This document shows positions 27,725 to 64,000 of a stretch of 64,000 nucleotides of DNA, in pieces. The stretch is taken from NCBI GenBank assembly GCA_001724265.1, contig MEDY01000208.1, forward strand, positions 1-64,000, given 5' to 3'. The stretch's first letter is position 1. Each line of letters begins with the position of its first letter. Source of the stretch: Rhizaria sp. SCN 62-66 (Eukaryota). The position numbers were made by a program, and so were the translations under genes. The notes beneath the pieces are model-generated. The model saw only the letters and a list, made by a program, of their open reading frames with translations, was not told where the DNA came from and did not search any database.

Positions 27725-27872
27725 CTGTGCATTGAGGCAAGGAGGTATCATCATAGAGTATAATTTATGATTAATGATTTAGTTTGTCTTAAATATTCGC
27801 TCACAAAATATTATTGCTGTTAACGGATGTTCTCGCCTCATACGCCTTCTTCAAGCAGGTCGCTCGCTGCAG
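27725..27872. promoter_or_regulatory. 148-bp AT-rich divergent intergenic region (probable bidirectional promoter) with CAG|ATG junctions facing outwards on both strands
   Basis: Head-to-head ATGs at 27724 (-) and 27873 (+). AT-rich core tataatttatgattaatgattt...aaatattattg. GCACAG|ATG on the minus strand and CTGCAG|ATG on the plus strand. Confidence 0.6.
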
Positions 27873-41767: not shown

Positions 41768-43378
41768 ATGTCCACCCCCAGCGGCTACATCATCGGTATC
41801 ACTGAGCCCCTGACGAAGTTCTACGAGCTGGGCCAGGCGCTCGGCTCGGGCCAGTACGGCGCCGCCTCCGTCGCTGTCGACAAGCGCTCCGGCCGCAAGG
41901 TCGCCGTCAAGACGATCAACAAGGCGCGTTTCCGCTCCTCGGACGTGGCGTACCACTTCGAGGCGATGCGCAACGAGATCGCTGTGATGCGCTCCGTCGA
42001 CGACCCGCACATCATCAAGCTGCTCGACGTGTTCGAGTCTGAGACGGAGCTTCACCTCGTCATGGAGCTCTGCGAGGGCGGCGAGCTGTTTGACCGCATC
42101 AAGGAGAAGCGTCAGTACTCGGAGAAGGAGGCGCAGGAGGTGCTCCGCCAGATCTGCCTCGGTCTGCAGACGCTGCATGCGGCCAAGATCGCTCACTGCG
42201 ACCTCAAGCCCGACAACTTCCTCTTCGTCGACCGCTCCGACGCCTCGCTGATCAAGATCATTGACTTCGGCATGTCCAAGGCGCTGCGCCGCCGCGAGTA
42301 CCTTAAGCACCTCCGCGGCACGCCCTACTACATCGCGCCTGAGGTGCTGTCGGGCAACTACGCCGAGCACTGCGACATGTGGTCCGTCGGCGTCGTCATG
42401 TTCGTCATGCTCTTCGGCTTCCCCCCGTTCCACGGCGACTCTGACCCTGTCATCTTTGCCGCCATCCGCAACGGCTTTGATCCTACCGTCAAGAAGGGCT
42501 GGGGCCCCTGGTTCCCGGCCCAGATCGCGTGCTCCGCCGCCGCCCGCGACCTCATCTCGAAGCTCCTCACCAAGGACGCCTCTGCGCGTCTGACCGCTAA
42601 GGAGGCCCTCGACCACCCCTGGATGAAGGGACAGGTGCGTCATAGCATAACCCTAGCGTAACACACGTCGCAACTATCATTGTTTTGCTCACTCATATTG
42701 CAAGACTGTTTATCTTAACTTAAATCTACTCTCTATCACGTGTTCCGCAACTTCCTAACTTTAAATCTCTTTTTGCTTGTGATGTTTGTATCTGCGCTTT
42801 AGGACGTGCCCCTGCACCCGCTGCCGCTGACTGTGGTCTCCAACCTCAACAACTTCGTCCGCAAGACGCGCTTCTCCAACGAGATCCTCGCCTACCTCAC
42901 CCAGTCGTCGATGCAGACGGACGAGTACGTCGCTCTCGCCAAGACGTTTCGCTACATCGACAAGAACAACGACGGCGTGCTCTCGGTCGATGAGTTCCGC
43001 CAGGCGCTGGTGGAGACGGAGAACTCGAGCCTCGACGAGCACGCGCTCATTAAGGCCATCCAGCACGCCGACATGGACGGCGACGGCACCATCTCCTGGA
43101 AGGAGCTGCTCCTGGCCACCACGGCGCGCCGCCTCGCCGCTAAGGAGGAGCGGCTTTGGAACGCGTTCCGCAAGATGGACCTCAACGGCGACGGCAGGCT
43201 TTCTGTGTCGGAGCTGGAGCAGGCGCTGGGCAAGGATGCCTCCGAGGTTAAGGCGCTCATCTCCGAGGTGGACAGCGATAACAACGGCGAGGTCGATTAC
43301 GAGGAGTTTCTCAGCATGTTCGGCGCCTTCGAGGGCCAGAACAACGAGAACTTGCTCAACGACGCCCTCGGCAAGTAA
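41768..43378 (+). CDS. CDPK: Calcium-dependent protein kinase (kinase + junction + four EF-hands), 480 aa; exons 41768-42634 and 42803-43378
   Basis: LGSGQYG, VAVKTI, MELCEGGELFDRI, HCDLKPDNFLF, IIDFGMS, GTPYYIAPE, DMWSVGV. EF loops DKNNDGVLSVDE, DMDGDGTISWKE, DLNGDGRLSVSE and DSDNNGEVDYEE. Intron CAG|GTGCGT...TTTAG, 168 nt. Confidence 0.95.
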
Positions 43379-45409
43379 GCGAGTGACGTATTCCGCCTAC
43401 CATAGCAAACAAGCCAGCGTAACGATTCAGCAGGCAACGAGCGATCAAGTTAGCGGTTAGTAACTGGTGTTTAAGCAGGCTGCGAAGTGGTTTATTTAAA
43501 CAGCGTTGCTTTGTCACTTAGCTCTTCACTTGTCTTGGTTGTTGTTGCGCTTTTTGTTTCGCTGGACAATGTAACGTGAATGAAAAAGCAATTCGCAGTG
43601 TATGTATGTTAACTCGGAGCAACTGCGATGTTTCTGTGTCGTTCTATCTTGTCTTGTTCTCTTCTCTTCTATCTTTTCTCTTCTCGTTTCTTCTTTTCTT
43701 TGATTTTTCACTTTGTTTTTCTTAATTTCTCTCAAACCCAACACAAGCATGTTGTCTGCACTCACTCTGTCCGTTCAGTTCACTCTGCGCTATACAACAC
43801 ACGTATATTTTGCCCGTTAGCGAGTGCTCCTGTCAATTTTGCCACTCTCTTAAAGTGGCAAATTGCTTTTGTTCTATCATCTCCGCTTTCTTACCCTCCG
43901 TACAGTACAGTGCAGTGTAATATGCCGTGCCACGCAATGCAGTCAGTCCAGTCCAGGTCTTGTTTGAGTCCAGTGTGAAAGCCTCCTGACAAGGACTCCT
44001 GGCTGACCGACTGAGTGCGCCGTTTTGTTGTGGCAAACTCGGCAGCGCAAGTCAAGTCCGACTGACTGCGTCCGCAACGGGATTGGTCAAATCATCACTC
44101 ATCAATCGTGTGGTAGCTGCGGTCAAGCCAAGTTAAGTCAAACAGTCAAGTCAAGTCAAATTTTAATCATGTCAGTACAGTACATTATTTTCGTCGCTAA
44201 TAACTTTCGTCAACTCTTAAGATTGTGTTGTTGAACCTCTATAAAAACGACTACTTTTAGAATACAGAGTTACTATTATTGTATTGTTATTAAAAATAAG
44301 AATACCAATCAAGTAAATAGGAAATTATCATATGGTTGAATTGAATTGAAATGCAAAAAAACGGAACAAAGTTTTCCACAAAGGATCATCACATCACCCA
44401 CACAAAAGCATGCGGCGTGCGCGCGTGTTGCATGCATGAAGACGCGTCCTAGCCGGACCGCGCAAGGCATACACACAGCGCATGGCATGAGATAGAGCCG
44501 CAGCTCTGTTCATTCTTGGTGTGTGGTAATTGGGCGACTACTTGTGTCCACAAAACTGTGTCCAAATCAAGATCTTATCATGTGAGGCAACACAGGATAC
44601 GCAATCATCAGAGATTTGCAACGTGGGAGCAGGGCAAAACAAAAGACGTTGTGGTGACAGCAGTTATCGTTCTGCAAAGCTCCTTCTCGTTGCCTCTGTG
44701 CGTGTGCGTCGAGACCGGTGTGCCGATGGTTCAGTGTTACTTCTTCTTTTGGCTTCCCGCAAGCGTCCATGTCCGTTTGCCATCGCTGGCGAGACACAGA
44801 GGAGCGTGCATTTTAGCTCACAGCGGGACATACAGACAGAGCAAACAGGCCGTACCAGTTAATCAGTCCGTCGGGCGCCGTCGTCTGCAGAAGGGCAAAC
44901 TATGTGAGCGCAAACGCAGTGAATGCTGTACGCTTGCAGTGTGAAGTGCCGTGCTGCACTGCCGTCACATAACAGCAGAGCGTATCGTGTATGTCGAGTC
45001 GGTCGGTGGCCGGCGGGTACGGCGCCAGCTCGCGTCATCGGAGGAGGTGGGTGGGTGGTGGTTGTGAGAGCTCTCTGAGTTTAGCAGTATCTATCTGCGG
45101 AAGGCTAACCAAGAGCGCTCGGTCAGCGATGCTTTGGACGAAAGAACAGTATTTAGTGACTGTACAACTTGCATGAGAGTACTTATCTCAAGCGCTCTGT
45201 CGACGCGCATAGAAGGCCGCTGCGATGCGCGAGGAGAACATGCTGTGTTGTGGTGACAAGATGGTGTGCCATTTTGAAACACCTCATGTGTGCACAACAC
45301 AGACAACGCAATCAGGCGCCGCACTACTGAGTGCAATGCGCACGCGGCCTTACTTGCTAGCATCACGGCTAAACTTCACAACGGGGCGGCTTCACTTATC
45401 GCTAGTCGC

Positions 45410-46336
45410 TTACGCGGAAGCGGGCGTCTCGGCCGGGGGCGGGATGGCGGCCGGGGGCGCAGCAACCTCCGGCACAGCCTCTGCGACAGAGGAGGCAGCA
45501 GAGGGCGCAGAAGCCGCGGCAGAGGCAGAGGGCGCGGGAGCGGAGGCGGAAGCGTCGGCGGCAGCGTCAGCGTCGGCGGCAGGGGCGACGGTGGTGGTGG
45601 CCTTGGGAGTGGCGCTCTTGCGGGGAGACTGCTGCTTCTTGCCGTCAGCCTTGTCTTCAGCCTTATCCTCGGCCTTAGCGTCAGCCTTGGGAGCCTTGGC
45701 GGCAGCCTCGCCCTTGCCCTTGGGGGTCTTGGGGGCGGCGTCACCCTGAGCGTCGGCCTTAGGGGTGGCGGCGTCCTTGGGCTCAGCAGCAGCCTTCGGG
45801 GTCTTAGCCTCAGCAGCCTTAGGGGTCTTGGCATCGGCACCCTTGGCGGCGCCCTTGGCGGGAGTAGCAGTGGCAGCGGCCGCATCAGTAGCGGCGGCGG
45901 CGGCGGGCTTAGCGGCGGTATCCTTGGCCGGGGTGGCCTTGGCCGTGGCGGGGCGGCCCTTCTTCGCAGACTGGGGCTCCTTGTTCCCGTTGTTGTTGCC
46001 GTCGGCGGCAGCGCCGTCCTGCTGCTTCTTCTCAGAACCCTGATCAGACTTCTTAGCATCCTTAGCAGCGCCATCCTTCGAAGCAGCGGCAGTCTTGTCG
46101 TCCTTCTTGACATGCTCCTTCTTGGCAGCAGCGCCGTCCTTAGAGGTGGCAGTAGCATCCTTGGCAGCGTCATTCTGCTGGTTCTGGTTCTGGTTCTTCT
46201 TGTTGCCCTGCTTGTTACCGTCCTTCTTAGCATCACCGGCGGCGGGGGCAGCGGCAGCGTCCTTCTTGCCCTGCTGCTCCTGCTGCTGCATCTGCTGCTT
46301 CTGCTTGCCATCCTTGCCCTGAGCCTGGCCCTGAGC

Positions 46337-46368
<32 letters not shown>

Positions 46369-48434
46369 TGACATCGCTAGCCTTGTCGCCCGTCTTCTTG
46401 TTGCCGTCCTTCTTGTTGCCGCCCTTGCTGCTGTCGTTCGACATGTCCACAAAGGCCTGTGCGAGCGCAGAGGTCGAGGCGTTGCCCTTGCCCATAGTCT
46501 TGCCGACAGTGATGTTGATGTGCTCGTCCTGAGCAGCCTTCTTGTGGCCGCCCTGGTCCCTGCTTTGGCGACCCTTAGACTGCTCACCCTTACCCTGACC
46601 CTGCTCCTTGAAGTCCTTGGTGTTGCCACCCTTGTGGTCCTTCGCGGCCGCGGGGCCGGAGCCACTGGTGTTGCTGCCGCTGCCACTCTCGTTGCGACGC
46701 GCGTGCCCGCCGTCCGAGGTGTACGCCACGCGCGGGCCCTTGCCGCCGCCGACGTAACCGCTGTAATTGCCGTTGCCGTTGCCCGCAGCCGCGGCCGCGG
46801 CGTTATTGTTGGCGGCGGCGACGGCGGCCGCGGTCGTCGGCGCGCGGCCGCCCGCGCGGGACAGGGCCGCGCCGAGGTAGTTGTTGGCCGTGGGGCGGTA
46901 GGGCCGGCGCTCGCCGTCATTGTTGCTGCCGCGGTCGCTCGCGTAGGCGATGCCGGCGCTGGAGCGGAGCTCGCGGACCTTGTTCATGTTCTCGTGGGTC
47001 TCGGCGCGCATGTTCTGGAAGATCCGCGCAAAGCCCACAGTCTCATTGACGAGAGCGATGGCCAGCTCCACCGCGGCGACGCGGCCGACGAGGACAACGG
47101 AGACGAGGGCCTCGGGGTTGCGGGCCGCGCGCTGCTCGAGCGCGTGCTGCTGCTGCTGCTGCGCCTGGTGAACGCCACGATAGTTGTTGTTGTAGTTGTG
47201 GTGGGCGTCTGAGCCATCGTCGCGGAGGACGCGGATCTTGACGTTACCGGCCTTCTCCTCGATCGTCGCGATGTTCTGCTGGGTGAGCGCGGGCAGCGCG
47301 AGGGCGGGGATCTCGACGCGGCGGCGCACGATCTCGAGCATCTCAGCCGCGGCCTGCAGACCGGCCTCCGAGGTGCCGCGGATGGAAACGGCGCCGTCCT
47401 CGCCGACGTTGATCGTCGCCACGCCCTCATTGGCCTTGGCGAGCTTGATGTTGGCGCCCTGCTTGCCGATGACGAGGCCGATAAGCTCGGGCTCGACGTG
47501 GATGACGCGCTCGAGCATCGCGGCGTACGTCTGCTGGAAGTCCTGCAGGGAGTGCTGCGAACGTTGGTGCGCAGCCGTGTAGTGCTGCAGCTGCTGCATC
47601 ATGACGAGCGAGTACGACATGAGAGCGGCGAACTTCTGCAGAGCGGCGCGGTCGCCGAGGGCAAGCATGCCGGTCGACGTCTCGTTGAGCGCAACGGAGA
47701 GGACGGAAGACTCGTGCTGTGCGCGGGTGACGGCGGCGGCGTCCACGTCGGCGGGCTGCAAACCCTCGGGGAAGGGGACCTCGATGCGCTCGATCGCCGC
47801 CAGGGACAGCGCGGGGTTGGGGTTATACGGGCGGAGCAGGTCCTTCTCGTAGACCTCCTGGTAAGGGGTCTTGAGGTCGAGGAACTGGACGAGATAGAAC
47901 TCGCCCTTGACCGTCATGATCTGCACGCGCCACCACGACACGGGCTCGGCGCCACCCGCCGAGTCGGCGGCCTGGGCCTCGACGATCTCCCCAGCCTGGG
48001 GCACCCAGCCGTCGTAGGGGGCGGGCGGGAAGCGGACGAGGACGGGGTCCACGAAGTGGGACTCGCGCCAGTTGTCCGGGTACGACACCATCACCTGGCC
48101 GTGCTTCACGTCATGCAGCAGAGCCTGGTGAGGAACGGGGGGCGGGAGGTGGGCGGGGTTCAGAAGGAGCGCGAAGGAAGGAAGGAAGGAAGGGGGGGGA
48201 GGGGGGCGGGAGCGGGAGACGAGAGTACAGAGGAGGAATCAGGGTTAGCAGGTGTCCTGATAAAGTATAGGATGCTTGAGATCAATAGATGCGCGATGAA
48301 CTCATGGTTGGACCTGTAGTTGTTCGAGAGAGGCGCGATCTGTCGGTGCGAAAGGTGCGCAGATGGGTATTTAGACTTACCGAGTGGTAGGAACTGGTGT
48401 CCACGTTCTTGACCTCAACACGAGCAAGAGACAT
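45410..48434 (-). CDS. FMR1/FXR-like RNA-binding protein (tandem Agenet/Tudor, KH0, KH1, degenerate KH2, NES-like helix, long low-complexity tail), 922 aa; exons 48434-48381 and 48124-45410
   Basis: MSLARVEVKNVDTSSYHS|ALLHDVKHGQVMVSYPDNW...VRFPP...EIVEAQ...EPVSWWRVQIMTVKGEFYLVQF...YQEVYEKDLLRPYNPNP; KH1 LIGLVIGKQGANIKLAK. Intron TCG|GTAAGT...ACCAG, 256 nt, with a CTAAC branch-like site and a long pyrimidine tract. Confidence 0.85.
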
Positions 48435-48971: not shown

Positions 48972-51900
48972 TTACTCAGCGGCGGGCGCAGCGGAGGCAC
49001 TGGTCGACGCACTACTACTGCTGCTAGACGCGGCCGCTGGCGCCGTGTGCACGAACACGCGGAGTTCCTTGCAGAGCCCGGGGATCTTGGTGACGTAGAG
49101 CAGTCGGTCGAGCAAGTACGCGACGTTGGCGTGTGTACGCTCTTGCACCACCGGGTGGCCCATATCAAGCCGCGTGAGGTACTTAAAGCAAATCCCGGTG
49201 AAGAGCGATGCAATCTCGCGGAAAATTGCGTCGCGGTGACTCGGGTTCAGCAGCTCACTCAGCGCCTTGTGTAACGCCGCGGTCTGACGCAATAGCATGC
49301 GGATGCACTGGTCCGGCTTACCCGCCTCGTTCTGGTCCTTATCTTTGCTCTCGGTGTTGTTGTCCGCCGCAGCCGCGGCCGACACGGCGGCCTCAGCGGT
49401 CACGGCGGCGGCAAGTGACGGCGCCGCCGCAGCCGCACGCGCCCAGTCCGTCACGAGCAGCTTCTGGCACGCGGCTTCGCAGATCGATCCAACCATGTTC
49501 GCGAGCTTCGAAAACACCTCCGCGCGGTGGTAGTCTAGATCGCGGCCCAGCGCATCAAGAGCCTGGAGCAATACGGCCTGTTTGCCGGAGAGCCGGCGGG
49601 CAAGCGCGCGGCGCAGCACGGGCAGCTGCGACAGTGCAAAGCCCACGGCCTGCGCCGCGAGCGCGAGATGCGTTGCCGTGACGGCCTTGACACCGACCGT
49701 CTGCATGCACTGCGCGCCGAGCACGAGCTGGCAGGACCGCGTGTTGAACAGCTTGATGAGCTCGGCGGCCTTTTGCACCGCGGCGGCGGCCACGGCGGGG
49801 ACCTCAGTGGCGCATTCGACGTGTTCCCGCAGAGCGTCGACGAGCACGAACACGGCCTTAACCGCGGGGAAACCACCGCGCACGAGCTCGTTGCCGCTAG
49901 CGCTGCCGATGCTGCCGCCGACGCCGCTGACGCCACTGAACGCGTTGCTGAAGCTACGATTAGATGACGAAGGCAGAGGTGAGGTCGAGGTCGGACCGAA
50001 GCCGGCGACGGCGGACGCAGGCATGACCACATACAACATCGGTGTAGCGGTCGTAGCGGTCGCCGCCGTCGCGGGAGCAGTCGCGTTTTCACCACCACCA
50101 TCAGCAGCGGCAGCGGCAGCAGTGCTGGCAGCAGCGGCGGCGGCAGCGGAAGCGGCGGCGTTGGCCTCGGCGGTGGCTGCTAACGCCGCCGTGACGGCCT
50201 CGTCGACTTCCTCCTCCGGCCCCGGCGCCAGATTAGGCGTATACGCGCAGTCTAGCGCGCGTTGCACGCTCTCGGGCGCGGGGACGGGCGCCCAGAGTTC
50301 AGCGTCGAGCGCGGCCGAAAGCTCAGACATCGCGCGGGCACTGGCGGCGGCCAAGAACGCCTTAGCTTGATCTAAGAGAGTCGCGCGGAGACCGTAAAAG
50401 GCGCGCCCGCAGAGCTGTTCGGCGTCGGCGACAAGGTCCAGTGCTTTGTCGACAACTTGGCGCAGCTCCTCCAGAGTCAGCGAGGCGTGGGCGGCGGCGC
50501 GCGCGGACAGCATGCGGCCGACACGGGCCTGTGAGGCGAAAAGCAAGATTTAACACAAGTAGATATAGAGCGGTTTAGATGTGAGTATTGGGAATTTGTA
50601 GTTTGAAATACGACTAAAATAAATCGTTTCGCAAAACTTGATATTCATTTCAATAATTAGATCTTTTGATCGAGAGAAATGTTGTAATCGTACCTGGAGG
50701 AACTCTGCGAGCTGGTAGAGTGAGCCCGTCAGCTCGGCGGACAGAGCCGCTGAAGACGCCGCGGCCGCCGTACAGCAGCGGTCGGCGGGCGGGCCCCAGC
50801 GCACGGGCTGCAGCCGCGGGGGCGCCAGGACCGCGTTCGCCGCCGCCGTCGCGGCAGCGGCCGCGGCGTTGGTGGGGCTTGGCTCAGGAGACTTCTGCTG
50901 CTGTTGCTGCTGTTGCAGCTGTTTGCTGTTGGTGTGATTATTCACAGCGTGAGCGTTGTTGGCGCTGCTCATCACGGGGTAGGGCTCCGCGGGGACGGGA
51001 TCCATCGCCCGCGCCACGGCAGCCAAGTGCACCACGACAGTCACGCCTTCCTCGGCCTCGACTGCACCCGCACTCTCACACGCGTCCAGACCGTGACCGT
51101 GAGCGTCGTCAGCCGTCGTTGCGGCGGGTGTCGCGTGGGTCACGGCGGGGTACCAGGGCCGCAGCCGACCGCGCGCGACGTCAACCACCGTCACCCCAGT
51201 GCCAGTGGGCCCAGTCAGCGCCGCGTCAAACGCCGCACGGAGGGCCGTGGGCGCGGCGGCCTCTGCGGCGACGCCTGCGACGAGTAACGCAAGGGCATGG
51301 GTACGGGTAAGGAGCGCCGTGAGCGTGCCGCACAGAGGCACAAAGAAGAGCATGAAGCGCGCGTGGCTCAGCGCGGCCAACCTGGCCGCCAGCGGCCGCG
51401 GGCCGCCGTCATTTGCAGCTGGATTCGCGACGGATGCACTCGCAGTGTCTGCGTTGGTGTCGGTGGCGGACTGGACAGGTGTGCCGACGGCAGTACTTGT
51501 GGTACTCATGGTACTCGTGGGGCCCGGAGAGCCAGCGGTGGCGTTGTTGTGCGGCGTCGGCGGCGCAGACTGGGTCAGAGGCGTCGTCCCCGCCTCCGTA
51601 GTATGGACCAGGAGCGCCGAGTTGTTGCTCGCATCTGCTGCGGCGGTGTCGGCGGGCTCGACCACCGCAAGCAGCTCCGACACGGCGCGCGCCAGAGTGA
51701 GCTTCACCGCGTCACCGAGCGCGTCCTTGAGCGGGCTCGCCAGCGCGGTGAGGCCGCCAAGTGAGAGGAGGATGCGGAGGTGGGCGCGCGCGGTGCGGGC
51801 CTCGGCGCGGGTCAAACCGCCCGCGGCCGCCACCGGGTCCTCGTCCTCCTCTTGATCCTCGCGATCGGCATCATTAACCTCAGTCTTGGACTTTGCGGTG

Positions 51901-52266
51901 CCATTTGCAGAAGAGGACTCGCTGTCGTCTTGCTTTTGCTCACCGTGACGGGTGCTGTCACTCGTGATGTTGCTGTTATTGTTGTTTTTGTTGTTATTGT
52001 TGTTGTTTGCATTGTTAGAGGGCAAGAACGCGGACAGTGGGTCAGCGCCCGTCGCGACCGCAACAACCGCGGCGACCGACAGCGCGACGAGCGAGTCGAC
52101 CACAGGCCCTAGCACGCGCGCGCGCACCGGCGCCAGCGCGGCGAGCCCCCACAGCGGGCCGTCAGACAGCTGCAGAAACGCGTGCAGAAGACTAACGCGT
52201 GTCGCGGCAGGCAAAAGCTCAGTCTTGGCGAGGGCGTCGGCCGACGGGCGCGGAAGAGGGGCCGTC

Positions 52267-52300
<34 letters not shown>

Positions 52301-53864
52301 GCGTGCCGGGGGCCGCCCTCGCCACGGCGTCCCCGGCAGCGGCAACAACCTGCGTCTCGAGTACAGAGGCAAGAGCAAGCGCGCGCCTGAGCACGAGCGC
52401 AGCGGTTTCGGCGCGCGCGGCGTTGTCCCCAGCGCGGGCGGCCGCGAGAGTGGCCAGAGGGGGCCCGACGGCGCCGCCGCCGACCTGCGCGACGGCGCCG
52501 CGAATCAGCGAGATTTCGGCCAAACACGCGGACACGTCGTCGTGGAGCGCCTCAAGCGTGTGCAGCGACTGGAAGAAGAACGGCGCCTTGGCCGCGACCT
52601 GCGTCTGCAGCGCGGCTTCGACCTTGTCGGCGTAGGTAGTGAGCTCTTCCTGGAGCGCGGCGACGGCGGCGGCGCCCGCGGCGTCTGGGGACGTGGACCC
52701 GCCGACCGCGGAGCGGGCGCGAATGAGCTCGGCGCTCGTGGCGGCAGTCGCGCCCGCGCCGGTGCCGCCGCCGCCGTCGTCATCGTTGTTGCTGCCCCCG
52801 TAGCCGCTGGGGCTGTGGCCGTGGTCGAGAGCGCCGCGTTGAGATGATAGCGCGGACGGGGCCGGGCGCGGGGCGGTCGACGACGATGACCTGTTGTTGA
52901 GGCCGCCGTATGTCACGGAGGACTGCGGGTCAACGGCGGTGCCGGCGAGAATGCTCTCCGTGGTCGGGATCCCGATCGAGTGCAGAACTTCGGTCGGCAG
53001 AAGCGCGGGCGCACGGGGCGCGGCGTCCAGATCCGCCAGAAAGGGCTGCTGTGAAAGCGCGTAGGAGCTGAAGAAGAACGGCCGCGGGACGGTGCGCAGA
53101 CAGTCGTCGAGCTGCGCGTCGACGGCAACGCGCGACACCGCTGGCGACACGGACGACGGCGACGACGAGGACGAGGACGATGAAGATGCAGCAGCAGTGG
53201 CGCGCGCCACCGCAGCGTTGGCGTTGCTGTTGGCAAGCGCGGGACCGTGGTACAGCGCGGGTGCCGCTAACCCTGCGGCAGCGATCGCCTCCGCAGTGGC
53301 GGCCGCGATTGACGCTGCGGCGGCGGCGCGCGCGCGGCGTTGAGTGCGCGCGCGTTGCTGCTCGAGCTGGGCGCGGCGGAACGAGCCCGCAAGCGAGCCC
53401 AGATTGCGGAGGTACGCCTTGAACACGGGCAGCGCGGCGGCGGCGTCGTAGACTTCGGGCCTGTGCTCGATCGCCTCATCCGCCGGCGCAGTGTCGTCGT
53501 CGTCGTCGGGGTCGTTGAGCACCGAGGACAGCGACTGCAGCGCGTGGGAGCGGGGGATGCGGGGCGGGCGGGACGCGTCGGCGCTGTGCGGCAGCTGCGG
53601 GAACCGCGTCGCCGGCGCGAGGTCGGCCGCGAAGGGCGAGGGCGCCATGGTCGAGAGGAAGGTGCTGGTGCGGCTGTGGCTCGATGGCGAGCCAGAGCCG
53701 GCCGAGGTGATCGTACTGGCGGAGCGCGGGCGCGCGCGCGCGGCGGACGGGTGGTGCGGCGCGACGTCGAGCTGACCGAAGGTCGGGCCGCGCGCGTCGG
53801 CTGGCGACGGCTGCGGGGAGGCGTCCGTGGCGCTCTCGGCCCAGGGGCCCCAGATCAGGTCCAT
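48972..53864 (-). CDS. VPS54: GARP complex subunit VPS54, ~1575 aa; exons 53864-50694 and 50528-48972
   Basis: LSSVLNDP; LRTVPRPFF; LQEELTTYADKVEAALQTQVAAKAPFFFQSL; FNTRSCQLVLGAQCMQTVGVKAVTATHLALAAQAV; DLDYHRAEVFSKL. Intron CAG|GTACGA...CACAG, 165 nt. Confidence 0.9.
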
Positions 53865-54552
53865 TGCGGCTGTGCCAGGACGCGGGGCGCGGGCAGGGGC
53901 GGGAAGGGCAAAGGGGGCGCGCACCCAGAGCGCTGCAAATGGACGGTGGCGGCAAAGAGCAGCTGAGGACGCAAGGGATGGAACGCAGGAAGGGCAGCCG
54001 GTCTGCCTGAGGTCCAGTTTAGGAGCGAGAGTCGGAAGAGCTATGGATGAAGGACGCGATATAAGAGGGGAGGATTCCCGTGAGCAGCATATCATTTAAA
54101 TAGGGCATATAATCAGCACGATTCAACATCAAAAAGCTTCTCATGTTCGTATTGTCGACGGACATGTAGCGTGGCAGCTCGCTGATTTAAACCTGCTGAC
54201 AGATCCAAGATGAACGAGCGACGACGAGGAGGCGGCCTGGTTCGCAAAAATGTTGGGTAAAGCGACAACAGGGAGTCATTTTCGTTCGACTCACTTTTTG
54301 AAGGCATCTACAACCCGTCTCTGCAGGCTAGTGAAATTGGGGTTATCATATGTTATAGTGCTGACCGGGGTCTATTTATAAACAATATTCACATCCACTG
54401 TTGACACGACCTTCTCCTTCCATACTCTCACAATGAACGCCCTTCGACCCTTTCTTTGTGTCTCCTTCCATCCTCTCTTTGCCGCTTCTTTCCATCTCTC
54501 TTCAACCTCCATGAATCTTTTCACTGACGCGTATGCTGCACCTTACAGTGAA

Positions 54553-57033: not shown

Positions 57034-57784
57034 TGCTTCACACACTGCAGAGTTGACAAGAGGGGAAGGGAAAAGTGGTTCATAAGTGGTATCAAGGATA
57101 AGCTATAGATCTGGCAGGTCTCATGTGAAATTCTCTACAGGTGAAATTATCAATTTCAAATACTAAATCGCGCAAATGAGTTTACTACGAAGTGGTAAAG
57201 ACGCTTGGAGAAGGGCAAAGGAGAGGTTGGATGGCATCCCCCACCAAGCAGACTTGGCGGTCCATACAGCTTCAGTAAGAGGTGAAAGCAAAGATTCTAT
57301 GCAATATAGTAATAATAGGAAATGCAACCTATATCATAAACGAGTCACAGTTTCATCGAGCGTCGTTTGGGTCTCGTGTAGACACTTTATTTGACCAGCC
57401 TCCCATCGGTCGATTGAGCTTGGTAGCGAAGTTAAGCCGCCCAAGACAAGAAGCACCGATCGAGACTGAGAGCAATGAGGAGCAAGCCCAAGTCGTCCCC
57501 AAGGAGGTCGGTGGTGAAATTGAGGCGTAGGATATGACGGCCTCAAAAGCTGTTGCGGCACCTAGAATTAAAAGCTAGTGCAGGGGCGACTTGATTCTAT
57601 GTTGTCGCTATTGAACTATCTTCACTGTCGGATGATACACCCTTTTCTTTGTCCATTTTAGTGCATTTCTCATTGCTCACTCACTGCTTTGCCTGTCCGC
57701 TCCCCTCTCGGTCCCCTCTGGACGCCCTCTTGTTGGGGTCTCGTAGTCACCCTTCGGAGGTCTAACAGTCGCAGTACGCAGGCC

Positions 57785-60700
57785 ATGACGACTCCGGCCG
57801 CTGTTCTGGACTTGTCCGATGCGGCGCGGGTCATGAACGGGCCCCTGCGCGTGTTGTGCCCGGATCCCTACCGCAGTCCCGACGACCGTGACGCGCAGAA
57901 CCACAAGCTTTTCACGCTACTGTGCAACTACCTTTCGCTCAGCCAGTTCGAGCTTGCCCGTCCCGTTATTACAGAGCTTTTCTTTGCATGTCCCGAGCGC
58001 ATTCTGCACCTTTTGCGCTCAATCATCGCCAAGACGATCCCCGACCAGTGGCTCTTCAACAAAACGGTTCCCTCGATCGGCCACCTGCAGTGGCTCGCTC
58101 TTGTCGAGTACGGCCAGCTCTACGCTAACGTCTTCGACAAGGCCACCGCGCTTACGCCCTCAGTCCCGCTCATCGTCGCCTCCAAGGACCCGCGCTTCGC
58201 CGCGCTGGCGCATTCGAGCGCGGTGACGCGTCACCCGATCAACCCGCTCGGTTTCATCACTCACGACCAGCTCGTGGTGCAGGTCATGGCGCTGGAGCTG
58301 CGCCGCGTCACCGCCGCGGGCTGCTTTGTGCGCGTTGAGCAAGAAGGCGACCAGGACGGCTTCTTCACCACGCCCGTCACCGCGCTCACAGCGGCCGGCC
58401 ACGCGGAATACCCCACGGCGACCCCGCCCAAGTGCAAGCTCGAGGTCAACATCGCCGATGCGCAGCTCGTCTTCACCGTCGCTACCACCGCCAAGCTGCC
58501 CCAGTCCGCCGCCAACAAGTCCGGCGCCGCCGCCGGCGCGCAGTCGAACAACAGCAGGTCTGGCGGCGGCAGCGGCACTGGCGCGACGACGCTCTTTGCG
58601 AAGGCCGTCATCGGGCTACACCAGCTCCGCGCCAAGGACAAGTACCACATCTGGGTGCCTCTGATCCCGCTGCACGCCAGCGACACCGCTGCTGCGGACC
58701 AACAGCTCGGCCGCATCCGCATCCGGCTCCGCTGGCGCCAGCAGTCGCTCGCCCCGCGCCGCGACGGATCGGCGCGCCTCTTCTCGGACCGCGCGATGTT
58801 GCTCATGGAGACAGACATCCTCCTCGCGCACGCCGCGGTCACCTACCCCGCGCTGCCGCCCGCCGCCGCGCTCGCCGCTGCCGAGTCGGGCTCAGGCGCC
58901 GCCGGGGCCCGCGGCGCGACCGCCGCCCGCAACACGGCCCGCGAGCCTTTGCTGCGGCCGGAGCATGTGAGCGAGATCCGCTCCTACTGCCTCGAGGCCG
59001 TGGGGCGCAAGGACCCCTCGCTGCTCATCTACCAGCGCCCCGCCGCGGATCCCACTGCGGCGCTGCTCCGCGGCGACGAGCCCGCGCCCGACGACGACGG
59101 CAACGGCAATAACGCGGACGGCAACGGTGCCGATACGGGCGCCGCGGGCGGGCTGCGCGGCAAGTACAAGCCGACGCACCGTATCCAGCACTCGCTGTCG
59201 GCGCTGCGTCGGCTGGTCCGTGAACACCCGTCGCTCGGACATGCGCTGTGCGCGCACTTGGCCGCGGTCCGCCCGCAGGACCCGACGTGGGTGTACCTCT
59301 ACGCCGAGCTCATCTTCGAAATGCTGCTGCGCCAGGAGCACCCCCAGGCCCTGCAGGCGCTGCTGACGCTCGTGCACGACATCTACCCCGGCGACGAGTT
59401 CTTCGCGGCGCTGTCGAACAACACGCCCGAGGCCGCCGCCGCGGCCGTGGCTGCCGCGGCGGGTGCGGGCCCCGGCGCCGCGGGCGTGCAGCAGCTCACT
59501 GGTCCGCGCGCCATGATGCGCGAAGTCTACCGCGCGCTCGTGCACTACGTGCACGACGACCCGGCCGCGCGCCAGCACCTCTTCCGCCTGCTGTCGCACA
59601 AGCGCCTCGTCACGGGGCTCGACGCGCCCGAGCTCTCCGGCCAAGAGCTGCTGCTGCTGTCGCGCGAGGAGGTTCTCGCCCGGCAGCGCCGCGTGCTGTC
59701 GCGCAAGTGCCGTGTGTACGGCGCACTTGTCGGAAACGAGCAAGTGCTCAAGCAGTTCTGCGCGCTTGAGGACTTTTACCTCCACGGCACCGCGGCCGCC
59801 GCCAAGGGCATCATCGCTGCGCGCACGCTGCAACTCCAGCCCGGCACGTCCGCCGCCGCGGCCAGCACCGGTGCCGCGGCGCCGCAGAGCAAGATCGCGC
59901 TGCTTCCGGGCACGCCGCGTGAGGGCGTCGAGCTCGACGTGCCGCTGTTTTTCCACTCGCTCGCCGACGCGCTGCGCGAGGTCGAGACGCTGCAGGCGCG
60001 CGCCGTGCGCGACTACGGCGTTGCCCCCGCGCAGCTGCCGGCGCACGTGCGCGAGCCGCTCTTCTCACTGCGCGAGGAAGCGTTCTCTGCGTTCTGGAGC
60101 GACTACTACAGCTTCACGCGCTCGCGCCGCGTGCATGTGTACGAATTCCCGCTTAAGTGCGCTCTGGAACTCGTGGGGACGATCTCGCGCATCGAGCTGG
60201 CGCCCGCCTGGCACGTCAAGGGCTACCCTTGCGCCGAAGGTACCGCGGGAGTCGTCACGGCGGCCGAGCGTGCGGCACTGACGGAGCTCTTCTGGTCCGC
60301 ACTTGAGACGCTGCTTGCACCGTTCAACTTCCTGCGTCCGCTGGTCGCGCTGCTGGCGTGGGACCGCGTCGACGGCAGCGCCGCGCTGCGCGGGGACGTG
60401 ATGCGCCGTGTGTGGCGGCCGTACCACCAGACGCTCGCCAACGCCGCCGTGTTCGAGTCGCTCATGGGGTCCGTGCTGGACACTGACGCCACGCCCGCGC
60501 ACGCCGCGTCAGAGGCCGCGCGCGCCGCCATGGGCAACGGCAGCAGCGAGCGTGCGGACAGCTTGACGGCGTCTGCGGCGACGGCGCCGGCCAGCGCGCG
60601 GCGGTCGCTGCAGCGGTTCGAGTGTGCGGAGCCGAAGCTCGTGCTGCACTGCAACCGGCTGGAGCTGGCTGTGGAGCTGAGCGAGATGGTCACCAACAAG

Positions 60701-63700
60701 GCGCCCTCGATGCTGCGCAAGTCACCAGAGGAGAAGGAGCGGCTCGGCCAGTGGCTCCTCACCCAGCTTACGCAGCAGTCGATTGTGCGCGCGCTCCAGC
60801 CGTACCTGGCGGAGCTCGATCCCGCGCTGCTCGTGCATGCGGTGAAGCGCCACATCGAGCTCGAGCTAAACGTGCGCTACGCCGAGGACGGCAGCAACGG
60901 CACCACTAACGCCGCCGGCGCCCCCGACGCTGACGCCGACGTCGACGCTGGCTCCGGTGCTTCTGTCGCCGCCGCTGCCGCCGGTGGCGACGCCAAGAAC
61001 GCTGACGGGGCGAAGGCCGACTCCACCAGCACTGCTGCCGCGGGCTCCGCTGCTTCCGCCGACGGCAGCGGCGCCTCTGCCTCTGGAGCCGCTGCTAGCG
61101 CTGATGCCAAGCCCGGGGACGCGCGGTTCGCTTCCACCATGGCGACCTGGCTCCCGGAGCAGCGCGCGCTGTTCGAGGCCACGGGTCTCGCGCCCGATGG
61201 TCAGATCCTCAACCCTACCCGCGTGCTGCGCGCTGCCGACGCCACGCTCGCGGCCGCGCGCGGCGGGTCCCGCGGCGTCGCGCGCACTGCGCTCGGTCAA
61301 ACGGCCGTGACGGAGCTGGTGCACGACCTGCACGTGCTGTGCGCGTACTACGCCGTCCGCAGCGTGCTCCGCGTTCTGCGTGCGCACTCAAGCGGCCGTG
61401 TGGTCAAGCCGGCCGTGCAGAGCGAGGCGCTCGAGGCGGCACGCATGTTCATGCTGTCGATGCAATACCGCGCGTACCAGGTGTCGACGCTGGAGAAGAT
61501 CTACTGCTTGCTCTTCACCACCGAAGCCGATCTGCGATCCTCGGTGGCGACCGACGGCGAGGACCCTGACGCGCCTCTGCTCTCGGCCGTCAAGGACAAA
61601 GCCGCCAAGAAGTCCGGCGGTAAGGGGAGCGGTGACAAGAAGGACGCCGCGGCGAGCGCGGATGAGGAGCTGCGCCAGCTCGACGCGCTGATGGACACCG
61701 GTGCATTGGGCAAGCAGGCGGGCGACCGCTTTGTCCTGCGCGGTGAAGTTCTCCTCTCGCTGCTGCAGTTCCTCGCTGACACGACCAAGACGATGCTCGC
61801 GGCCGTTGCGCGCGATGACGCGCCCATCGACGTCGCCGCGGCGGGCGCGTCCCCGGCGACCGCGGTGGCCGAGGTGGCGCAGCTCAAGCACCGCCTGCAC
61901 GCAGTCGCCGCGCAGGTCGAGGAAGGGCTGTGGCGCGCGCACAAGCTTCACGCCGTGCTCCAGGGCGAGGCGCCGACGACGCAGGGCACGCTCCTCGCGC
62001 GCAACTTCACCATGGGCCACGTCGTCGCCCCTCTGCACCACTTGTCTTCTTACCTCGTCCACATGGAGCAGCTCGACGATCCCGCCGCCCGCCTCTGTGC
62101 GCCTGTGCTGCCCGACGCACTGGCCGAGCATTCGCGCGAGTTTGCCGCCACGCTCAACAAGGCCGTCACGGACGCTGTGGCCATCGCCGCCGCGGCCGCC
62201 AACGTGTCGGCGTCGTCCACCGGCGTCGAGCACCTCAAGAACGCGATGGCCGCGATGGTGTCCGGTCAAACGGACCTCAGTTCGCAGGTTGTGCACGCCG
62301 AACGCATGAAGCAGGACGCGACGCTGTGGCGCGCGCTGTGCGAGCTGGTTGAGCGCCGCATCGACGAGAGCTCTGGCAACACCACGCTCAACGCCACTCT
62401 CGGCGGCGACACGAGCGACGCCGACATGGCGCTGGCCCGCCGCGCGCAGGCGTTGCTAGACGGCGTGCGGCCGCACTCGATGGTAGGCATCGCAATCGTG
62501 CCCGCGCCAGACCGTGCCACGGGATCCGGCAAGGCCGTGTCTGCGGCGTCGTTCGTGCAGTCGATCGACGCCTTCATCGAGAACCACTACCTCGCGCTGC
62601 AGTCCTCGGCCGCGGCCGGGCCTGGAGCCCCCGCGGCGGTGGCGCGCGCGCCCAAGCACGATGAGCTGCTCGAGCAGAAGTACCTCTTCGCAGTTGACCT
62701 CGCTGTGTCGTACGCGTCTGCGCTCACGCTCGAGCAGTACCAGTGCCTGCTCGACCTCGGTGTGCAGGCCGCGACGCAGCTGGGCCAGTACTGCGAGACC
62801 GCGCTCTTCTCGTACCTGTCCGAGCCCGCGCTTAACGCCGTCGAGGCCGCGATGCAGGACGCGCCGGAGCGCACGCGCCTCGCCGCGCAGGCCGCGCTCC
62901 GCGCCCAGCGCGCGCTCAAGGATACGCTCGCCGTGCGCGCGCGGCTGTGCGCGCTGTACATCAGCTACGCGCAGCGCCGTCGCGCCGAGAAGGACGGCGT
63001 CGCCGTCGCGCTGCTGCCCGAGACGCTCGGCGGCCCCGCGGGCAACGGCGGCATTTCCTCAGCGCAGCTGCTGTCGGGCAGCGCGGGCACCGCCAACGCC
63101 ACGGGCGCGTACTTGGCTGGCGTGAGCGCGGGCGACTTTACCGCCGCGTGGCGCCACTACACCAAGTCGATCGAGTCGTCGGCGGCGCAGCACGAGGCGC
63201 TGCTGCCGCCGTGCCCATTCACGGCCAAGACTGCGATCCACGTGGTCCGCTACCTGGCCGAGAGCTCTGCGCGCGAGGCGCTGCTGGCGTCGCGCGAGCA
63301 GATTGACTCGGCCGGTGCGCTCGCGGCCGCGCTGTCCACGGCGCCCACGTCCGCGGTCGCGGCGTCGCTCATGTCGGCAGCGTCGGTGCTGTCCCCGACC
63401 GGCGGCAACAACGCGCCCCACCGCGGCGCGGTCTCGGCGATCGACGCGCTGACCACGGACGGCACCGTCGACGCAGTCGTCGGCACGGTCGACTCGCGGC
63501 TCTACGCCGTGCTTGCGCGCGCCATGCTGCCCGCGCTGGCCGCCGTGCGCTTCGCTATGCCCGCGGCCGTGAGCACGCTGCTCGAAGCCGTCGAGGCCGT
63601 CACGCCCGCCAACGCCGTGCCCGGCGAGACGCGCATCGCCGTCGCCAACAAGACGGTGCCGTCGGCGCTCGATGAGGCGATCGCGGTGTCGACGCAGTAC

Positions 63701-64000
63701 TCGCGCTTTCTCCCCACGCTCGCGCGCTGGGTGCAGTGGCGCGCGCAGGCGTACCAGCGCCTCGCGCAGTGGGTCGAGCTCGTCGTGCGCCCCGGGCTCC
63801 TCGTGCTCGCAGACGGGTCGCTCGTCAACGTGCACTCGGGCGCCGTCTCGGTCGTGCAGACGCTGACTGACCTTCTGGCCAAGGAGAACGCGTACCGCGA
63901 TGCCCAGGCGTACACGCAGATGTTTCTGTCGTACATCGAGACGATCCGCTGGCTTGCTCAGCGCGGCGCCTCTGCGGCGAGCTCTGTGGGCGCCAACACT
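57785..64000 (+). CDS. ZFYVE26/SPG15 (spastizin)-like large helical protein with a C2-like insertion; 3'-truncated by the window end (2072 open codons)
   Basis: Missing from the ORF track because there is no stop in the window; no listed + ORF here uses this frame. N-terminus KLFTLLCNYLSLSQFELARPVITELFFACPERILHLLRSII...VPSIGHLQWLALVEY resembles the ZFYVE26 N-terminus; later FLRPLVALLAWD and SPTLARWV. Strong coding codon bias. Confidence 0.7.
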   Translation, partial: MTTPAAVLDLSDAARVMNGPLRVLCPDPYRSPDDRDAQNHKLFTLLCNYLSLSQFELARPVITELFFACPERILHLLRSIIAKTIPDQWLFNKTVPSIGHLQWLALVEYGQLYANVFDKATALTPSVPLIVASKDPRFAALAHSSAVTRHPINPLGFITHDQLVVQVMALELRRVTAAGCFVRVEQEGDQDGFFTTPVTALTAAGHAEYPTATPPKCKLEVNIADAQLVFTVATTAKLPQSAANKSGAAAGAQSNNSRSGGGSGTGATTLFAKAVIGLHQLRAKDKYHIWVPLIPLHASDTAAADQQLGRIRIRLRWRQQSLAPRRDGSARLFSDRAMLLMETDILLAHAAVTYPALPPAAALAAAESGSGAAGARGATAARNTAREPLLRPEHVSEIRSYCLEAVGRKDPSLLIYQRPAADPTAALLRGDEPAPDDDGNGNNADGNGADTGAAGGLRGKYKPTHRIQHSLSALRRLVREHPSLGHALCAHLAAVRPQDPTWVYLYAELIFEMLLRQEHPQALQALLTLVHDIYPGDEFFAALSNNTPEAAAAAVAAAAGAGPGAAGVQQLTGPRAMMREVYRALVHYVHDDPAARQHLFRLLSHKRLVTGLDAPELSGQELLLLSREEVLARQRRVLSRKCRVYGALVGNEQVLKQFCALEDFYLHGTAAAAKGIIAARTLQLQPGTSAAAASTGAAAPQSKIALLPGTPREGVELDVPLFFHSLADALREVETLQARAVRDYGVAPAQLPAHVREPLFSLREEAFSAFWSDYYSFTRSRRVHVYEFPLKCALELVGTISRIELAPAWHVKGYPCAEGTAGVVTAAERAALTELFWSALETLLAPFNFLRPLVALLAWDRVDGSAALRGDVMRRVWRPYHQTLANAAVFESLMGSVLDTDATPAHAASEAARAAMGNGSSERADSLTASAATAPASARRSLQRFECAEPKLVLHCNRLELAVELSEMVTNKAPSMLRKSPEEKERLGQWLLTQLTQQSIVRALQPYLAELDPALLVHAVKRHIELELNVRYAEDGSNGTTNAAGAPDADADVDAGSGASVAAAAAGGDAKNADGAKADSTSTAAAGSAASADGSGASASGAAASADAKPGDARFASTMATWLPEQRALFEATGLAPDGQILNPTRVLRAADATLAAARGGSRGVARTALGQTAVTELVHDLHVLCAYYAVRSVLRVLRAHSSGRVVKPAVQSEALEAARMFMLSMQYRAYQVSTLEKIYCLLFTTEADLRSSVATDGEDPDAPLLSAVKDKAAKKSGGKGSGDKKDAAASADEELRQLDALMDTGALGKQAGDRFVLRGEVLLSLLQFLADTTKTMLAAVARDDAPIDVAAAGASPATAVAEVAQLKHRLHAVAAQVEEGLWRAHKLHAVLQGEAPTTQGTLLARNFTMGHVVAPLHHLSSYLVHMEQLDDPAARLCAPVLPDALAEHSREFAATLNKAVTDAVAIAAAAANVSASSTGVEHLKNAMAAMVSGQTDLSSQVVHAERMKQDATLWRALCELVERRIDESSGNTTLNATLGGDTSDADMALARRAQALLDGVRPHSMVGIAIVPAPDRATGSGKAVSAASFVQSIDAFIENHYLALQSSAAAGPGAPAAVARAPKHDELLEQKYLFAVDLAVSYASALTLEQYQCLLDLGVQAATQLGQYCETALFSYLSEPALNAVEAAMQDAPERTRLAAQAALRAQRALKDTLAVRARLCALYISYAQRRRAEKDGVAVALLPETLGGPAGNGGISSAQLLSGSAGTANATGAYLAGVSAGDFTAAWRHYTKSIESSAAQHEALLPPCPFTAKTAIHVVRYLAESSAREALLASREQIDSAGALAAALSTAPTSAVAASLMSAASVLSPTGGNNAPHRGAVSAIDALTTDGTVDAVVGTVDSRLYAVLARAMLPALAAVRFAMPAAVSTLLEAVEAVTPANAVPGETRIAVANKTVPSALDEAIAVSTQYSRFLPTLARWVQWRAQAYQRLAQWVELVVRPGLLVLADGSLVNVHSGAVSVVQTLTDLLAKENAYRDAQAYTQMFLSYIETIRWLAQRGASAASSVGANT

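Follow-up and report, generated by a model that had tools for sequence, protein, structure and literature searches.

The locus and the gene model

The subject of this account is a gene on the minus strand of a window of 64,000 nucleotides, positions 1 to 64,000 of the forward strand of contig MEDY01000208.1 (assembly GCA_001724265.1, Rhizaria sp. SCN 62-66), whose product resembles FMRP (FMR1) and its relatives FXR1 and FXR2. Very probably this gene, with its two exons, is intact and encodes a deep-branching member of the FMRP/FXR family, and its host is a non-animal eukaryote with a GC-rich, intron-poor genome that also carries a calcium-dependent protein kinase (CDPK). The gene fills the interval 45410-48434 exactly, from stop codon to ATG. 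Exon 1 (48381..48434, minus strand) consists of the ATG and 17 further codons (MSLARVEVKNVDTSSYHS) and is taken to form strand one and to begin strand two of a first Agenet domain (Agenet1). It is followed by a GT-AG intron of 256 nt in phase 0 (48125..48380, minus strand), with its donor GTAAGT at 48380 and its end, CCTCACCAG, at 48125. The frame then resumes with ALLHDVKHGQVMVSYPDNW in exon 2 (45410..48124, minus strand), which holds 904 codons plus the stop codon at 45410-45412. The joined coding sequence of 2769 nt is translated into 922 amino acids with one terminal stop.

An earlier note on this DNA had proposed the likeness to FMRP from motifs read directly in the sequence, and the motifs that it quoted are all present, VEVKN in exon 1 and DNW, VRFPP, EPVSWWRVQIMTVKGEFYLV, LRPYNPNP and LIGLVIGKQGANI in exon 2. 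Nearly all of them are carried by a 942-codon stop-to-stop frame (45410-48238, minus strand), with VEVKN upstream in a short separate frame. The GC content at codon positions 1, 2 and 3 is 0.68, 0.49 and 0.84 over the whole coding sequence, and at the third position (GC3) it reaches 0.91 in the part that encodes the domains. Since these values match those of four neighbouring genes (GC3 0.77-0.93) and are unlike the lower GC of the intron (0.57) and of the flanks (0.50 and 0.55), the frame is taken to be a real coding frame of this genome. Exon 1 is supported because a local family hidden Markov model (HMM) aligns the spliced protein from its first residue, placing residues 1-416 as a single domain on profile positions 1-405 of 407 and the 18 residues of exon 1 on positions 1-18. 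On the plus strand the gene is overlain by two open reading frames (ORFs), one of 644 aa (45278-47212) and one of 368 aa (47213-48319). Both are of low complexity and rich in Leu, Gly and Arg, and they were set aside as antisense frames of a gene with high GC3.

The public gene model of this protein, P0001 (893 aa), begins at the internal Met of MVSYPDNW and has KH_1 as its only precomputed Pfam label. It is without exon 1 (48381-48434) and without 11 codons of exon 2 (48092-48124), so that Agenet1 is truncated in it, and the annotation can therefore be corrected at its N-terminus and in its label. The intron falls between S18 and A19, which align to K17 and A18 of the FMR1-like sequence. Exon 1 of human FMR1 presumably ends after codon 17, also in phase 0. 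If that is right, the single intron may occupy a homologous position and be a conserved ancient one.

Module order and fold

The best matches of the protein are to FMR1 and FXR rather than to other KH or Tudor proteins, and the likeness greatly exceeds what chance would give. Compared by phmmer with 177,635 distinct PDB sequences, it gives 13 matches at E<=1, the first nine of which are all FMR1, FXR1 or FXR2. The top six are N-terminal chains of FMR1, FXR2 and FXR1 (E 1.2e-13 to 3.9e-10), and these N-terminal matches align exon-2 residues 2-132 to FMR1 residues 19-146; further matches include the KH1-KH2 structure of FMR1 (2qnd, 7.2e-5), FXR1 KH1 (1.5e-4) and FMR1 KH1 (2fmr, 0.029). The likeness is strengthened when relatives are brought in. 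A profile made from the protein and 58 of its non-animal-type relatives, defined below (A3, 59 rows), matches the N-terminal structure of FMR1 (4qvz) with E 3.8e-54, profile positions 5-214 lying against chain residues 6-213, and 2qnd with E 6.1e-46 over profile positions 220-361. The nine best PDB matches of A3 are all FMR1, FXR1 or FXR2, and the next, FUBP2 (6.7e-16), is matched over KH only. Aligned by hhalign to a profile of 24 animal-type sequences (A4), A3 gives a probability of 100 and E 2.4e-87 over 380 collinear columns.

The predicted fold points the same way. Exon-2 residues 1-430 were modelled by AlphaFold2 with a mean predicted local distance difference test score (pLDDT) of 88.5 and a predicted template-modelling score of 0.66, and the twelve top-ranked PDB matches of this model by Foldseek are all FMRP, FXR1 or FXR2, with PCBP2 at rank 13 (7.8e-4, template-modelling score, TM, 0.33). 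Against 4ova, 4qvz and 4qw2, which comprise Tudor1, Tudor2 and KH0, 181-187 columns are superposed with TM 0.68-0.73; the 4ova match has E 3.9e-12, TM 0.72-0.73 and a root-mean-square deviation of 3.2 over 181-183 columns. The chain from residue 1 to about 410 is accordingly read, on its alignments, as collinear with FMR1/FXR through Agenet1, Agenet2, KH0, KH1, KH2 and a long helix. The family identity and near-complete architecture that the earlier note had put forward are thus borne out by four independent routes, namely the PDB matches of the single sequence, a HMMER pass over representative proteins (described below), profile comparisons and the predicted fold.

An independently assembled protein in which Tudor or Agenet and KH domains have come together, as in TDRKH or the plant Agenet proteins, could arrive at the FMRP architecture by convergence. 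Agenet domains are widespread and so are KH domains, Pfam run on the single sequence places only KH_1 above its cut-off, and the weak Foldseek matches include the Agenet domain of plant AGDP3 (7yta, E 1.5e-2) and extended-Tudor proteins (4.5e-3). Convergence would nevertheless have to reproduce a collinear alignment that takes in KH0, the inter-domain helix and the helix after KH2. It would also leave the best sequence and fold matches, FMR1, FXR1 and FXR2 throughout, without a reason, and TDRKH (1we8), the type of unrelated Tudor-KH protein that might have headed the list, appears in the A3 search at 1.1e-7 with one KH domain alone. Convergence is therefore very improbable and already close to refuted.

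The anatomy of the protein is given here in exon-2 numbering from the AlphaFold2 model, to which 18 is added for the full-length number. The exon-2 part of the first Agenet/Tudor domain (48023..48124, minus strand; ALLHDV...DNW...VRFPP) aligns to FMR1 residues 19-51 in 4ova, with predicted strands at 2-7, 10-14 and 23-25 (span 2-25) that are completed by exon 1. The second (47813..47995, minus strand; EPVSWW...GEFY...LRPYNPNP) is assigned from PDB sequence and fold matches and from conserved aromatic residues, its strands lying at 47-99; the Tudor structure of FXR1 is matched as 3kuf (Foldseek E 3.4e-6, TM 0.73) and as 3h8z (TM 0.68). In full-length numbering and by way of the FMR1-like sequence P0032, W82, W83, F94 and Y95 align to FMR1 W79, W80, F91 and Y92. 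Similarly, F99, Y106 and E108 align to FMR1 Y96, Y103 and E105, and R116 corresponds to FMR1 R113, which is Arg in 84/84 aligned relatives (52/52 non-animal-type and 32/32 animal-type). FMR1 T102 is replaced here by P105 and FMR1 R138 by Q141. Further along the chain, G268 aligns to FMR1 G266 and I303 to FMR1 I304. In FMR1, such positions form the methyl-lysine pocket or are disease sites.

The KH0 of FMRP is a KH domain that lacks the GxxG loop. In the predicted model a domain of this kind is present directly after the Agenet pair, as a KH0-like domain without GxxG that leads through a long helix to KH1 (47540..47803, minus strand). It comprises a strand at 112-117, a helix at 129-139, strands at 143-157 and the long helix at 159-202, and its assignment comes from the Foldseek match to 4ova and from the hhalign alignment, which covers the region.

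KH1 (47333..47518, minus strand) belongs to the type I KH domains and keeps its GKQG loop (47456-47467) intact; it is recognised by Pfam KH_1 above the gathering score (E 5.1e-7) and matched by PDB entries 2qnd and 2cpq. Its modelled elements are a strand at 204-209, helices at 212-219 and 221-230 on either side of the loop (220-223), strands at 235-250 and a helix at 253-263. KH2 (47039..47332, minus strand) follows with its fold predicted to be kept and its GxxG loop deleted, in a beta-alpha-alpha-beta arrangement, a variable loop (47108-47224) and then beta-alpha. The model has a strand at 265-273, helices at 274-279 and 282-292, a strand at 295-300, the variable loop at 301-339, which itself holds a helix, a strand at 340-348 and a helix at 349-389, and the KH1-KH2 pair of 2qnd is matched by Foldseek with TM 0.75-0.78. 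In the abstract of PMC9603430, a GxxG loop between two core helices is given as characteristic of KH domains. In KH2, as the earlier note had seen, this loop is missing; its place is occupied by LTQQ (47276-47287), and the alignment puts a three-residue deletion at the loop (LTQQ---NIATIEEKAG in the window protein and VIGKNGKLIQEIVDKSG in P0032). When 85 full-length rows are aligned to one HMM, the GxxG of KH1 is found in 32/32 animal-type and 50/52 non-animal-type proteins. The GxxG of KH2 is kept in 31/32 animal-type proteins and in only 24/52 of the non-animal-type, the other 28 having lost it mostly to G-x-x-F/Y/W. By this alignment a degenerate KH2 is read as a recurrent trait of the non-animal-type group, with the window protein as its extreme form.

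The last helix of KH2 continues beyond the domain (46958..47038, minus strand). There it lies against the beginning of the C-terminal core of the animal proteins, and the hhalign alignment extends to template position 394. The segment of FMR1 aligned here is the one in which its nuclear export signal (NES) lies. The helix that had been called NES-like, VVLVGRVAAVELAIALV, turns out to be the last beta-strand and alpha-helix of KH2 (340-348 and 349-389 in the model) and not a demonstrated export signal. Matches to the NES consensus at 363-383 sit inside the secondary structure of KH2, and the stretch that corresponds to the NES region of FMR1 in the alignment contains none. Moreover, the classical NES pattern occurs 12 times in residues 1-420 and 8.4 +/- 3.1 times in 500 shuffles, and is thus uninformative here.

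The remainder of the protein is a low-complexity, net positive tail rich in Lys, Ala, Gly, Gln and Asp (45413..46957, minus strand), with runs of nine Gln and of six and five Ala and with short tandem repeats in its DNA. At its start (exon-2 residues 398-429) the pLDDT of the model falls below 50. The description of the tail as rich in Lys, Ala and Gln rather than in RGG holds, since no RGG occurs in the entire 922 residues and the last 474 have 68 K to 7 R (7-12 R by other counts of the tail), with A at 25.5%, K at 14.3%, G at 10.3%, Q at 8.2% and a net charge of +22. The 504 residues after the domain envelope make it the longest tail of the 85 rows. Among tails of at least 50 aa, one or more RGG is found in 26/30 of the animal-type and 25/39 of the non-animal-type, whereas tails dominated by Lys (K at least three times R) number 0/30 and 4/39, respectively.

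Relatives, placement and host

A complete HMMER pass over 1.84 billion representative sequences gives 274 matches at E<=1e-3, of which 95 have E<=1e-10 and 8 have E<=1e-30; many of the 274 span query residues 2 to about 400. The 149 non-self relatives studied further were divided by their Pfam pattern, which is all that is meant here by the two types. The 55 animal-type proteins have strong KH_9 and Tudor_FRX1 matches, with FXMRP1_C_core or FXR_C1 in 22, whereas the others, which include all the best matches of the window protein, show Agenet and two KH_1 domains with only weak Tudor_FRX1 and KH_9 scores and no animal C-terminal core; FXMRP1_C_core at E<=0.01 is found in none of the 16 best relatives of the window protein (P0002-P0017). 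A few of the 149, among them the multi-KH proteins P0048 and P0107, are not FMRP-like. P0021 carries a C-terminal CCCH zinc finger (Pfam zf-CCCH E 4.1e-4), and P0147 carries a RING finger (6.3e-9), its match to the family profile being limited to positions 4-213. At least 52 full-length non-animal-type relatives, in several deep groups, are present in public protein sets. The closest has E 4.9e-39 and is 33% identical over query residues 8-391, and identity falls to 24% with the FMR1-like P0032 and to 21-25% with animal FMR1/FXR. As no relative is more than 33% identical, the host lineage appears sparsely sampled for a gene of this kind.

Labels of origin for the non-animal-type relatives come from two sources only, a EukProt tag on P0040 and one ESM Atlas cluster. 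The latter has 54 members and the automatic name 'Fmr1-b protein', its score is 0.90, and its commonest known phylum is Perkinsozoa (known for 4 members). The first ESM Atlas match is a chordate FMR1 cluster (score 0.90), and with animal families removed there remain three unnamed KH_1 clusters with no recorded taxa. A word-index search with the window protein recovers only its own public model, P0001. With profile A1, which includes four animal rows, vertebrate FXR2 dominates and all 120 matches listed are vertebrate. The non-animal profile A2 finds three proteins, P0040, P0001 and a fungal multi-KH protein, and its word-index step probably lost true relatives. The likeness has probably remained unannotated because Pfam, run on the protein alone, sees only KH_1 and a sub-threshold Tudor_FRX1.

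Two trees were built, one by FastTree from the 85 rows with a single full-length envelope and one by IQ-TREE under LG+C20 from 62 rows, in which 13/32 animal-type rows were kept and P0028, P0135, P0146 and P0148 (long branch) were left out. The animal-type clade is supported at 100 by FastTree and at 99 by the SH-like approximate likelihood-ratio test (SH-aLRT) in IQ-TREE, and each tree sets it within a somewhat broader clade (support 99) that also takes in four or five intermediate rows. In neither tree does the window protein fall inside the animal-type clade, nor has it a settled place among the deep non-animal-type groups, and what is claimed for it is therefore membership of the wider family and not of the animal subfamily.

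The gene sits between a CDPK gene and a Vps54 gene on one contig. The CDPK, which had been reported as a neighbour, is real. It lies 2 kb away at about 41768-43378 on the plus strand, with a kinase exon (Pkinase 8e-73), closed by the donor CAG|GTGCGT, and then a further exon that encodes four EF-hands (EF-hand_1 9.8e-31, 4 stretches); its best PDB match is 4mvf ('Calcium-dependent protein kinase 2'), at well under full identity. The CDPK architecture is not known from animals or fungi. That the host is not an animal, as had been argued from this neighbour, is supported by the CDPK, by the shared codon-position GC and by the placement outside the animal-type clade (SH-aLRT 99), and the genome is that of a GC-rich, intron-poor, CDPK-bearing non-animal eukaryote.

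It is scarcely credible, on this evidence, that the gene is an animal FMR1/FXR gene brought in by contamination of the assembly or by recent transfer from an animal. Animal FMR1 clusters do head the list of ESM Atlas neighbours, and an approximately unbiased (AU) test leaves a placement beside the animal-type clade unrejected (p 0.097). A contaminant or recent arrival, however, would hardly lie between CDPK and Vps54 on the same contig with the codon-position GC of its neighbours, show at most 33% identity to any relative, give no Pfam match to FXMRP1_C_core, FXR_C1 or FXMR_C2, and branch outside the animal-type clade in both trees.

Several observations weigh against reading the gene as an intact, deep-branching FMRP/FXR member from a non-animal host. 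The splice to exon 1 is predicted from homology. Pfam on the single protein finds nothing above cut-off besides the KH_1 match, with Tudor_FRX1 at E 0.12 and KH_9 not matched; FXMRP1_C_core, FXR_C1 and FXMR_C2 are not found at E<=1, and only the helix after KH2 aligns in that region. Two RNA-binding elements of FMRP, the GxxG loop of KH2 and the RGG box, are both missing. The window protein occupies the longest terminal branch (1.5 substitutions per site in FastTree and 2.0 in IQ-TREE) and has a deviant amino-acid composition, and forcing it beside a 15-row animal-type clade costs 13.3 log-likelihood units (p-AU 0.097, not a rejection), so that where it belongs with respect to the animal clade is only loosely fixed. 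Finally, its function is argued wholly by analogy with FMRP and FXR.

The other genes of the window are ordinary eukaryotic housekeeping genes, with coding regions far richer in GC than spacers and introns throughout. The Vps54 gene (about 48972-54095, minus strand) is made up of two ORFs in one frame (1181 aa and 525 aa, the latter with the Vps54 domain) joined across an AT-rich intron of 162 nt (50531-50692, minus strand; GT...CCTCACAG) that contains an in-frame stop. The two introns inspected both end in CCTCAC(C)AG. An 835-aa frame at 8694-11201 (minus strand) has an unusual fusion of a CrtC N-terminal lipocalin, a second lipocalin-like domain and a polyprenyl synthetase (2.7e-20, 1.6e-22 and 3.2e-43). 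A 1528-aa frame at 23192-27778 (minus strand) has as its sole Pfam match a short tRNA (uracil-5-)-methyltransferase segment (residues 1415-1459), and for a frame of at least 2113 aa at 57662-64000 (plus strand), which is still open where the window ends, Pfam gives no match at E<=1e-3. Positions 1-2000 have a GC content of 0.42, compared with 0.50-0.73 in all other 2-kb bins, and neither Rfam at its gathering threshold nor ARAGORN finds anything in the window.

Function, age and likeness to known systems

By analogy with FMRP, the product would probably be cytoplasmic and bind mRNA as part of ribonucleoprotein granules or polysomes, with an influence on translation or on the fate of mRNA. KH1, with its intact GxxG, and the polybasic tail would contact RNA, and methylated partners would be read by the conserved aromatic pocket of Agenet2. 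Structural or protein-contact roles would fall to KH0 and to KH2, which is without its GxxG, and the long low-complexity tail would promote condensation. With the KH2 loop and the RGG box both gone, the function may have shifted. Hence a family member that no longer has the ancestral RNA-regulatory role, being in decay or neofunctionalised, for instance as a scaffold that does not bind RNA through KH2 or RGG, has to be weighed as well. The long branch and skewed composition, the deleted loop and a tail that is the longest in the set and contains no RGG would all fit. However, an open frame of 922 codons with strong codon bias, a confident fold prediction, intact core residues and KH1 GxxG and a tail that is still net basic speak against it, and since 28/52 of the non-animal-type relatives have lost the KH2 GxxG, its loss is better seen as a lineage trait than as decay. 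Loss of the ancestral role is accordingly unlikely.

Work on FMRP has been confined almost wholly to animals, with the protein treated largely as a neuronal one, and a cnidarian FMR1 homologue is reportedly the deepest published case. A full-length homologue in the genome of a unicellular non-animal, together with dozens of relatives, suggests that the architecture arose before animals and that the FMRP family is older than they are. The earlier note had inferred as much, and an older origin is plausible in view of the 52 full-length non-animal-type representatives in several deep groups. A broader proposal can be put forward tentatively, as somewhat less probable than its opposite. The family, with its Agenet pair, KH0, KH1, KH2 and probably an RGG tail, would far predate animals and be shared with CDPK-bearing protists and possibly with early eukaryotes, forming a large non-animal branch, not described in the literature searched, in which the KH2 loop is disabled in more than half of the lineages and of which the window gene, without KH2 loop or RGG, is the extreme. 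On this view, Agenet, KH0, KH1 and a basic, disordered tail would be what carried the core activity of the ancestral protein.

The novelty is lower than had been implied, because such relatives are already in public databases, one cluster of them under an FMR1 name; the gene is a new divergent member of a known family. No paper describing a non-animal FMRP was found in a full-text literature search that did not extend to most subscription journals or to supplements, and a prior description could exist, for example where a protist genome paper tabulates orthologues in its supplement. In passages of PMC3361156 FMRP is discussed only in animals and in those of PMC6381874 in animal contexts, and in those of PMC4630921 and PMC2287173 FMR1 is named only in references or incidentally. 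For FMRP specialists, an old and widespread non-animal branch with frequent loss of the KH2 loop and with RGG outside animals would be of moderate interest. A full-length homologue in a unicellular host makes it possible to study the task of the conserved FMRP core in a simple cell, and the natural variation shows which parts are dispensable, as the KH1 loop is almost always intact, the KH2 loop is often lost and RGG is absent from many tails, being replaced here by a Lys-rich tail.

Amongst known systems, TDRKH, FUBP/KSRP, hnRNP K, the IMPs and PCBP have type I KH domains in common with the window protein, and TDRKH also has a Tudor domain. Their matches extend over single KH domains, no Agenet-Agenet-KH0 block can be aligned, and TDRKH has the order KH-KH-Tudor in place of Agenet-Agenet-KH0-KH-KH. 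The plant Agenet chromatin readers, represented by AGDP3, share the tandem Agenet fold, but the match is weak (TM 0.50) and they have no KH domains. The animal proteins FMR1, FXR1 and FXR2 (4ova/4qvz/4qw2, 2qnd, 3kuf and 3h8z) have the same order of modules, from Agenet1 through to the C-terminal helix and a disordered tail, and share the Agenet2 aromatics, the GxxG of KH1 and the G266 and I304 positions. The window protein differs from them in its low sequence identity, its deleted KH2 GxxG loop, the absence of a Pfam match to the C-terminal core and of an RGG box, its Lys/Ala/Gln-rich tail, its place outside the animal-type clade and a Gln at R138. The non-animal-type FMRP-like proteins (P0002-P0017 and others) are the closest relatives, with the same architecture and, in more than half of cases, a KH2 that is likewise without a canonical GxxG. 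Unlike the window protein, which has lost the loop itself, they mostly keep its first Gly and its full length.

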